Assembly: GCA_035494435.1 (NCBI GenBank)
Contig: DATJGX010000028.1
Span: 1 to 53,743 of the forward strand
Direction of reading: 5' to 3'
DNA: 53,743 nt
From: Patescibacteria group bacterium
GTDB taxonomy: Bacteria > Patescibacteriota > Saccharimonadia > Saccharimonadales > Saccharimonadaceae
Made by a program: the position numbers and the translations under genes. Below are positions 44,646-45,112 of the stretch, one piece after another (the stretch's first letter is position 1; every line of letters begins with the position of its first letter). The notes beneath the pieces are model-generated. The model worked only from the letters and a program-made list of their open reading frames with translations, was not told where the DNA came from and made no database searches.

Positions 44646-45080
44646 ACTGGGATATATCCCTACATCCTCACGAGCGGACCACCCTCGTGAGTACTTGCGG
44701 CCTGGCTTCGGCCACGTCCCAGAGTGCGCATCCACCCCCAGTGTGCCGCGCTCCCCTCGGTGTTGTCCATTCCCATTCACCCCCCTGCTTGGGTCTGGAC
44801 CGGAGGTTGTCGCGCCTTCGAAAGCCGAGGGTCCCACCCTCTTTTAGCACAACAGTCATAACGAGATGATATTGATGGAGCGTCCTGGGTGACGCAGCCG
44901 CTGACAACGACGTCAGCCGCGCGAACCCTAGCGTGTGTGGAATCCAGCATATTGTCTCTCCTGAAGGATGAGGATCCCATCGATGTGGATCCTTCTCACT
45001 TATCTGAGCCTGCCCGGGCACAGTGGGGAAGTGAGAAGTGACTCGTCAGCGTAACTTCGTGTTACCTCGAGCCTCATCGC
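44646..45080 (+). ncRNA. Candidate long structured non-coding segment downstream of the tRNA-like element, class unknown
   Basis: The ORFs on both strands look spurious. It contains multiple 7-9 bp stems and C-rich tracts, and it shares the orientation of the flanking ORF and terminator. Confidence 0.3.
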
Positions 45081-45112
45081 AGCCCGCGCACAGTCGCGGG
45101 CTTTTCCTTTTT
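45081..45112 (+). terminator. Intrinsic terminator
   Basis: Sequence agcccgcg-cacagt-cgcgggct followed by tttccttttt. Confidence 0.7.

Follow-up and report, generated by a model that had tools for sequence, protein, structure and literature searches.

A probable dual-function RNA gene closed by a leader-tail helix in the helicase-dus gap of Saccharibacteria

Described RNAs with features of the helicase-dus unit

RNAIII of Staphylococcus aureus, SgrS/SgrT, and SR1/SR1P are dual-function RNAs; 6C RNA of the Actinobacteria and the UCCC-loop small RNAs RsaE and RoxS of the Firmicutes have hairpin loops with runs of five or more C residues; and MEN-beta, the tRNA-miRNA transcripts of gammaherpesviruses, and the bacterial YrlA carry tRNA-like modules within longer RNAs. 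In the hok/Sok and aapA/IsoA type I toxin systems, a long-distance 5'-3' interaction closes the mRNA for a protein of about 50 amino acids (aa). Features of all these RNAs recur at a locus in a 53,743-nucleotide (nt) stretch of DNA, here called the window, from a Patescibacteria group bacterium of the family Saccharimonadaceae (GenBank assembly GCA_035494435.1, contig DATJGX010000028.1; 0.65 Mb, 83% complete, 51.3% G+C; genome G000 here). Our subject is a 467-nt stretch at positions 44646 to 45112, the tail, which is probably the noncoding 3' portion of a dual-function RNA gene of about 0.89 kb resident in the gap between a helicase-nuclease gene (addA-like) and the dihydrouridine synthase gene, dus, of Saccharibacteria. 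Such an RNA would be translated into a 54-aa three-helix protein and would also act as a structured RNA. The tail constitutes one module of what appears to be an undescribed, lineage-specific, helix-clamped RNA gene and is not a free-standing RNA.

The unit that includes the tail runs from promoter to terminator (44190 to 45112) on the same strand as both neighboring genes, and its parts follow one another in the order promoter, structured leader, 54-aa micro-open reading frame (micro-ORF), tRNA-like element without an anticodon, hairpin domain, and 3' extension with terminator. In general plan it shares with RNAIII-type RNAs a strong promoter, a terminator end, a length of several hundred nucleotides, a small ORF beside a multihairpin body, long-range 5'-3' helices, and C-rich loops. 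The small ORF of a conserved family and the structured noncoding body, which would be cotranscribed, are those expected of a dual-function RNA. Unlike RNAIII, to which it has no sequence or Rfam relationship, the unit has an embedded tRNA-like element, a micro-ORF that is exchanged between near-identical scaffolds, and a fixed position in one gap of Saccharibacteria, and its pairing with targets is presumptive. Like 6C RNA and RsaE/RoxS, it presents runs of at least five C residues in hairpin loops, and hairpins with C-rich apical loops are found in the tail; unlike 6C RNA, it is much larger, belongs to a different phylum, and has C loops as a single feature of a composite RNA, and no covariance-model match to the 6C family was obtained at an E value of ≤10.

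Resemblance to RNAs with internal tRNA-like modules and to toxin mRNAs is similarly partial. MALAT1 (papers on it include PMC8457004) contains the tRNA-like mascRNA module inside a longer RNA. As with MALAT1/mascRNA and YrlA, the unit places a nondecoding tRNA mimic in a longer transcript at which RNase P or RNase Z could cut, but in contrast to MALAT1 it is bacterial, includes a coding segment, and has its mimic in an internal position followed by a structured tail of 470 nt. No Ro/Rsr partner gene of the kind that accompanies YrlA is present, and one relative gave a weak YrlA-like match (26 bits; gathering score, 69). The long-distance 5'-3' helix around the mRNA for a protein of about 50 aa is common to the unit and the hok and aapA mRNAs, but the protein encoded here is hydrophilic and not a small hydrophobic toxic peptide, no promoter for a cis-antisense RNA was found within 44300 to 45100, and the ribosome-binding site is free of the helix. 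Lastly, the unit is large and ornate and associated with a tRNA-like structure, as are GOLLD, ROOL, OLE, HEARO, and raiA (GOLLD and ROOL often lie beside tRNAs), but none of their models matched at an E value of ≤10 in 44150 to 45180, and none matched in 23 related loci (E limits of 0.1 to 1).

The initial annotation of this DNA, made from the letters alone, had pointed to these large RNA families as the comparison by which the tail might be identified and had seen no signature of RNase P RNA or transfer-messenger RNA (tmRNA) in it. The Rfam comparison leaves the tail without a family: a cmscan search with 4,227 Rfam 15 families and permissive filters returned, at an E value of ≤10 over 44150 to 45180, a tRNA match and short matches at chance level, and only tRNA-like matches were obtained in the 23 related loci, at gathering as well as permissive thresholds. 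RNase P RNA (RF00010) gave no match in that interval at the same limit and none in the 83%-complete G000 genome; ARAGORN found no tmRNA, and the tmRNA model (RF00023) made only tRNA-sized, subthreshold matches in the genome. A divergent RNase P RNA or tmRNA, a candidate raised by the want of both in the G000 assembly, was rejected: canonical RNase P RNA is located elsewhere in 11 of 12 relatives (243 to 273 bits), as is canonical tmRNA in all 12 searched (52 to 86 bits), and thus the tail is neither. The published literature that we searched contains no description or name of this RNA.

The leader-tail clamp and the modules of the unit

A predicted helix, the clamp, joins the tail to the leader. 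The 5' arm (TTGTGCTAGAG, 44288 to 44298) pairs with the 3' arm (TTTTAGCACAA, 44842 to 44852) through 11 bp, 9 of them Watson-Crick and 2 of them G-U, and closes a domain of about 565 nt that holds the micro-ORF, the tRNA-like element, and the first 200 or so nt of the tail; the unconstrained minimum free energy (MFE) structure of the whole 885-nt unit, which has a z score of -5.8, includes this helix. The homologue of the 5' arm in relatives is the leader motif TTGACAGAAnGTGC, and there the equivalent 3' arm covaries with its own leader. RNAduplex applied over long stretches returned meaningless, loop-filled duplexes, and a motif-blind search was used instead that recorded, for each element, the best ungapped helices between the leader (the first 260 nt or so) and anything more than 250 nt downstream. 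The homologous leader motif took first rank in 12 elements and second rank in 3 others, G000 among them, for a total of 15. Although the arms diverge (GACAGGAATAGTGC, ...AGTAC, GACAAGAGATAGTGC, GACAGTAGATAGTGAA, ATTGACAGAAGGTG, ATATAGTACTC, and TGACAGAAAGTGC), each remains complementary to its own partner, with two to four pair types per aligned column; in three metagenomic loci (L071, L054, and L097) the leader motif GACAGGAATAGTGC has its exact complement just before the terminator, and L097 displays a double change, ...AGTAC / GTACT.... The clamp thus connects a native-looking leader with the tail, which indicates that both belong to one RNA.

Transcription signals agree with this arrangement. 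The promoter P1 (44190 to 44218, plus strand; TTGACA-17 nt-TACAAT with TG before the -10 hexamer) matches the consensus at 11 of 12 positions and overlaps, with its -35 hexamer, the final codons of the helicase-nuclease gene; consensus counterparts were read directly in five other genomes of the genus (G001, G004, G005, G006, and G007) and also at the empty site of a sixth, G003. At the other end, the intrinsic terminator (45081 to 45112; an 8-bp stem with 7 G-C pairs and a T-rich tail after it) is the sole one in 44100 to 45200, none being found after the micro-ORF or the tRNA-like element. The suggestion in the initial annotation that the tail forms one transcript with the micro-ORF and the tRNA-like element, whose strand it shares, is supported by this single consensus promoter, the single terminator, and a leader-tail helix with compensating changes in relatives. 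Two leader hairpins (44239 to 44279; TCGAC/GTCGA at 44239 to 44256 and GGTGCTC/GAGCACC at 44260 to 44279) belong to the MFE structure of the whole unit, and the first of them shows a C-G to U-A compensation relative to G005. Part of the leader hairpin is repeated in the tail (44866 to 44884 versus 44268 to 44279; GATGGAGC), and G007 repeats the entire leader hairpin sequence downstream, a hint that the leader hairpin and the tail may pair in more than one way.

Judged from its sequence, the 54-aa micro-ORF (44318 to 44482, plus strand) is a real protein gene. A Shine-Dalgarno sequence, AGGGAG, precedes it at 44307 to 44312, and its G+C fractions at codon positions 1, 2, and 3 are 0.71, 0.49, and 0.93. 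A word-indexed homologue search returned only the query, but an exhaustive HMMER profile search recovered a family of about 52-aa three-helix proteins comprising 52 representative clusters at an E value of ≤1e-3, nearly all of 49 to 55 aa and aligned over their full length, with A11, R18, and N39 invariant. AlphaFold2 models the hydrophilic micro-protein as a three-helix bundle (predicted local distance difference test score, 89); it matched no Pfam or PHROGs family and no Protein Data Bank fold at an E value of ≤0.001, and the longer proteins that contain it, which we take to be over-extended ORF calls, have no Pfam domain. Other elements hold unrelated micro-ORFs, encoding DnaJ-like CxxCxGxG zinc fingers, zinc ribbons, or other helical peptides, nearly all of them behind a GGAGGTGA-type ribosome-binding site. 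Since different micro-ORFs occupy near-identical scaffolds (L071 versus L079, with flanks about 92% identical, and G007 versus L127), the ORF behaves as an exchangeable cassette.

Directly before the tRNA-like element stands a hairpin (GTGCCC...GGGCAC, 44503 to 44538) that appears in the MFE structure and is conserved almost base for base in G005; as it has no U tract, it is not a terminator. The tRNA-like element itself (44542 to 44645, plus strand) retains intact acceptor, D, and T arms, encodes no CCA, and has a closed helix of 40 nt in place of the 7-nt anticodon loop. It scores 30.8 bits with the Rfam tRNA model (gathering score, 29), and ARAGORN makes no call on it. The counterparts in relatives keep the same three arms, with anticodon loops that are closed, with "anticodons" of 2 or 4 nt, or with identities incompatible with their short variable arms. 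By these features the element is a nondecoding tRNA mimic.

The tail consists of two parts, a division overlooked at the outset. Part A (44646 to 44841), a hairpin domain inside the clamp, contains a hairpin at 44667 to 44691, a C5 run at 44735 to 44739, and a hairpin at 44765 to 44800 with an apical C6 loop (44780 to 44785); part B (44853 to 45080) is a 3' extension with hairpins at 44900 to 44917, 44971 to 44993, 44992 to 45038, and 45051 to 45065 in the MFE structure and, together with the terminator (44853 to 45112), places about 260 nt outside the clamp. Every helix that the initial annotation had drawn by hand (44667-74/44684-91, 44971-77/44987-93, 44992-45000/45030-38, the GTAAC hairpin near 45051, and the terminator at 45081 to 45112) recurs in the MFE folds, and its description of the stretch as stem-rich agrees with an MFE of -186.2 kcal/mol against -159.5 ± 6.6 kcal/mol for 100 dinucleotide shuffles, none of which folded as well (z score, -4.0). 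The reverse strand has a z score of -3.2, so the strand is not settled by folding energy alone. No coding capacity was found, in keeping with the first reading: none of the seven ORFs on the two strands of the tail matched Pfam at an E value of ≤1, the longest (117 aa, antisense) had no homologue among 5.8 billion proteins in a word-indexed search, and the G+C content of these ORFs is flat over the three codon positions (about 0.57 to 0.67).

The C tracts noted earlier in the tail are real and are predicted to be displayed. Both the C5 run and the C6 run of G000 are in hairpin loops, with unpaired probabilities of 0.85 and 1.00, respectively, and runs of C5 to C8 in hairpin loops are a recurrent feature of the tails of these elements. 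The 23 elements together contain 34 runs of at least five C residues and 14 of at least five G residues; the excess of C motifs over G motifs in general is small (157 versus 131 over all elements) and is clear only for these longer runs. Among the eight genus-type elements, 11 of 13 such C runs have an unpaired probability of at least 0.8, mostly in apical hairpin loops, and both of the G runs are paired.

Distribution among relatives and alternative explanations

The gap between the helicase-nuclease gene (40928 to 44206, plus strand; 1092 aa, UvrD-helicase/PD-(D/E)XK nuclease) and dus (45130 to 46083, plus strand) measures 923 nt at 58.5% G+C, and no other ORF-free gap of the assembly is as long or as rich in G+C; the unit is present in the genome as a single copy. 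Among the eight other genomes of the genus (G001 to G008), dus was found in seven; in this gap, G001, G004, G005, G006, and G007 carry an insert of 700 to 900 nt whose parts follow the order seen in G000. With G000 counted, six of eight genus genomes have this layout, and the two empty sites (G003 and G008) have gaps of 60 to 80 nt, that of G003 retaining P1. A scan of metagenomes with Dus provided 80 loci (Dus identity, 57 to 75%), about twenty of which have gaps of 450 to 1400 nt with 45 to 58% G+C behind a helicase gene; long gaps with at least 50% G+C are numerous among these loci. The unit of G000 has every feature by which a family of clamped RNA genes was provisionally defined, namely, location and strand between the addA-like gene and dus, covarying pairing of leader and 3' arm, and an exchangeable micro-ORF with a strong ribosome-binding site together with a tRNA mimic and a G+C-rich domain.

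Similarity between elements is limited to the leader, the hairpin before the tRNA-like element, and the terminator region, and the modules are not always in the genus order of leader, ORF, tRNA mimic, G+C-rich domain, and 3' arm. Loci of the L071 group have the ORF after the G+C-rich domain, and in L081 and L067 tRNAs are placed after the clamp. The locus L126 (1 to 1040) has two tandem clamped units, each with a near-identical 3' partner and terminator. The first, whose leader is lost at the contig start, carries only the micro-ORF of the G000 family. The second, which lacks an ORF, possesses a separate promoter and leader motif and carries a tRNA-Gly(GCC)-like element, canonical in appearance, together with a domain of about 300 nt with perfect hairpins of 13 to 15 bp; the tRNA mimic and the G+C-rich domain can therefore stand as an RNA gene in the absence of an ORF. 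Closest to the G000 unit is that of L124, whose micro-ORF product is 58% identical; the two tails share only short islands, in part B (e.g., GATCCCATCGA..GGATCC). The terminator stem sequence is common to G000, L124, and G004, and a 3' extension of similar length occurs in G004 and is absent from most other elements.

The ORF-free unit of L126 bears on the alternative that the tail is a mere structured 3' untranslated region of the micro-ORF mRNA, in which clamp and hairpins control stability or translation by a fold-back of the hok or aapA type and no separate function falls to the tail. Such an explanation, which we consider unlikely, would account for a long-distance 5'-3' helix around an ORF of about 50 codons that is flanked by a strong promoter and terminator, for a micro-ORF that is a real, conserved, and swappable gene, and for the poor conservation of the tail sequence. 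However, the clamp leaves the Shine-Dalgarno sequence and the start codon uncovered, the protein is hydrophilic and three-helical and not a membrane peptide, no antisense promoter lies inside the unit, and the occurrence in L126 of the tRNA-like element and the G+C-rich domain as their own clamped and terminated unit points to a role of the RNA that does not depend on the micro-ORF.

The initial annotation had suggested a high-G+C origin for the three parts, which, extended, would make the tail a nonfunctional relic of foreign DNA, derived from an actinobacterial host or a phage of that host and lodged beside a tRNA-like integration site. The G+C content of the gap relative to the genome, the third-position bias of the micro-ORF, further patches of high G+C at third codon positions in the genome (e.g., C3:12990-13430), and the lack of conservation of the tail sequence between species all accord with import. 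In its sense of imported DNA, however, the claim does not hold up well, and we consider the account of a nonfunctional relic highly improbable: the ordered architecture and the gap are constant across lineages whose Dus proteins are only 59 to 76% identical, with the same layout in most genomes of the genus and on many Saccharibacteria-like metagenomic contigs; the genomic context of the micro-ORF family was the helicase-dus gap of Saccharibacteria in all five cases looked up; the unit had no DNA match in 50,697 phage records; the clamp, with its compensating changes, ties the tail to a native-looking leader; and the tail folds better than shuffled sequence. The raised G+C content looks like a property of a resident RNA gene, foreign origin being unlikely and an old transfer possible. 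Short patches of high G+C content that resemble small protein genes, with a strong third-position bias and AT-rich promoters upstream, are also seen in G000 at C3:12990-13430 and C12:1840-2170, and elevated G+C content may be usual throughout this genome for small genes with high expression.

We give very little credence to a third account, which takes the whole unit for a long cis-regulatory leader of dus: P1 would read toward dus, the terminator would attenuate, and the tRNA mimic, as a look-alike of the Dus substrate, would allow Dus or tRNA status to set the degree of readthrough. The unit always lies directly upstream of dus, the mimic retains a D arm, and P1 stands about 45 nt upstream of dus at the empty site of G003. 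Against these points, an extended -10 element read from the sequence (TGAGATAAT, 45114 to 45132, plus strand) forms the downstream border of the unit and would start transcription of dus independently, 7 nt before its ATG; TGAGATAAT or TGTGAGATAAT is kept before dus in seven of eight genus genomes (not in G008), with or without the unit and including the empty site of G003. Moreover, the tRNA-like element of G000 is about 435 nt away from the terminator, an extra small gene with its own promoter intervenes between terminator and dus in several relatives, and the micro-ORF would be left unexplained. That extra gene is AT-rich, encodes 66 to 105 aa, and was seen in L054 (about 2250 to 2500), L071, L057, L060, and L126 (1094 to 1294); the one called in L126 belongs to no Pfam family. 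At L124 (2400 to 3400), an insert of about 1 kb separates the unit from dus; it contains a short fragment that resembles the N-terminal part of dus, several successive CCATATCCATAAC-type repeats, and a gene for 135 aa that matches PaaX_M and Cas2 of Pfam weakly.

A decayed protein-coding gene, or a miniature transposon with the clamp arms as terminal inverted repeats, is barely credible, for although long frames are open on both strands and the arms are inverted repeats at the DNA level, there is no Pfam match, homologue, or codon-position signal, the unit is single copy in the genome and always in the same gap, and the arms are internal to the inserted stretch and not at its ends.

Two further observations concern the surroundings of the unit and of its relatives. 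A second unit of similar style precedes the helicase gene at 40486 to 40927, with a consensus promoter (TTGACA-17-TATAAT), a G+C-rich and hairpin-dense RNA, and a terminator, followed by a TGAGTATAAT -10 element and then the helicase ATG. On reading, neither a micro-ORF nor a tRNA mimic was apparent in it. A subthreshold match to the hammerhead type III ribozyme (34.3 bits against a gathering score of 48.5; E value, 0.001) lies near the contig end of L079 (3767 to 3821, minus strand).

Possible function and implications

Saccharibacteria have genomes of about 0.7 to 1 Mb with very little noncoding DNA, and cells so economical are unlikely to keep a unit of 0.9 kb without use. If the tail is the noncoding portion of a dual-function RNA, the clamp and the G+C-rich hairpins may give stability and define the fold, and the tRNA-like element may serve as a handle for RNase P or RNase Z, which could free the tail as a separate stable RNA. 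The C5 and C6 apical loops would then be the working surface of the tail, pairing with G-rich stretches resembling Shine-Dalgarno sequences or binding protein, by analogy with RNAIII, RsaE, and 6C RNA. About 13 ORFs of G000 have GGGGG at the ribosome-binding position, in place of GGAGG, compared with 6 for the C5 control (examples are at C10:2491, C4:2990, and C19:5510), and the genes include those for CTP synthase, GatB, a PilB-like ATPase, and ribosomal protein L3, as well as unknowns.

Several considerations weigh against the tail as a functional portion of a dual-function RNA. The tail has almost no sequence conservation between loci, the terminator stem being its only BLAST match among all of the more than 120 fetched loci. 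For the covariation table, arm pairs were selected by best complementarity, a choice that inflates the proportion paired (13 to 15 of 15 sequences per column), and the duplex energy of the G000 clamp is not better than that of several other windows of the unit; the clamp is weak when G000 is taken alone, and support for it is thus comparative, arising from its recurring position and not from its energy in this genome. The excess of C runs is clear in genus-type elements and weaker in the others, and since scarce G runs force C runs to remain unpaired, the display of these runs in loops partly restates composition. No functional theme emerged among the 13 or so genes with G5-type ribosome-binding sites, which were sought as targets of the C loops, and such targeting is therefore a lead only. 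Both cleavage at the tRNA-like element and action in trans are purely conjectural.

With these reservations, a more far-reaching proposal may be entertained, which we regard as possible but rather doubtful: the tail would be the effector of an undescribed, modular class of RNA genes in Saccharibacteria, composed of a clamp-closed scaffold behind a consensus promoter, an exchangeable micro-protein cassette, a tRNA-mimic handle, and a poly-C-loop domain and shuffled by recombination between strains, in which the C-loop RNA released at the tRNA mimic would regulate a set of ribosome-binding sites rich in G or form a small ribonucleoprotein with the micro-protein of its own unit.

Among the ORF-free gaps of the assembly none is larger or richer in G+C than this unit, yet it is kept across lineages with a near-perfect promoter, and its combination of clamp, tRNA mimic, exchangeable micro-protein, and C-loop hairpins was found in no RNA family or paper that we searched. 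For annotation, such G+C-rich patches should not be labeled foreign DNA or pseudo-tRNA islands. Should the tail turn out to be released as a regulatory RNA, it would count, within the limits of our search, as an early case of riboregulation in the candidate phyla radiation, and the unit would constitute a natural modular RNA scaffold.

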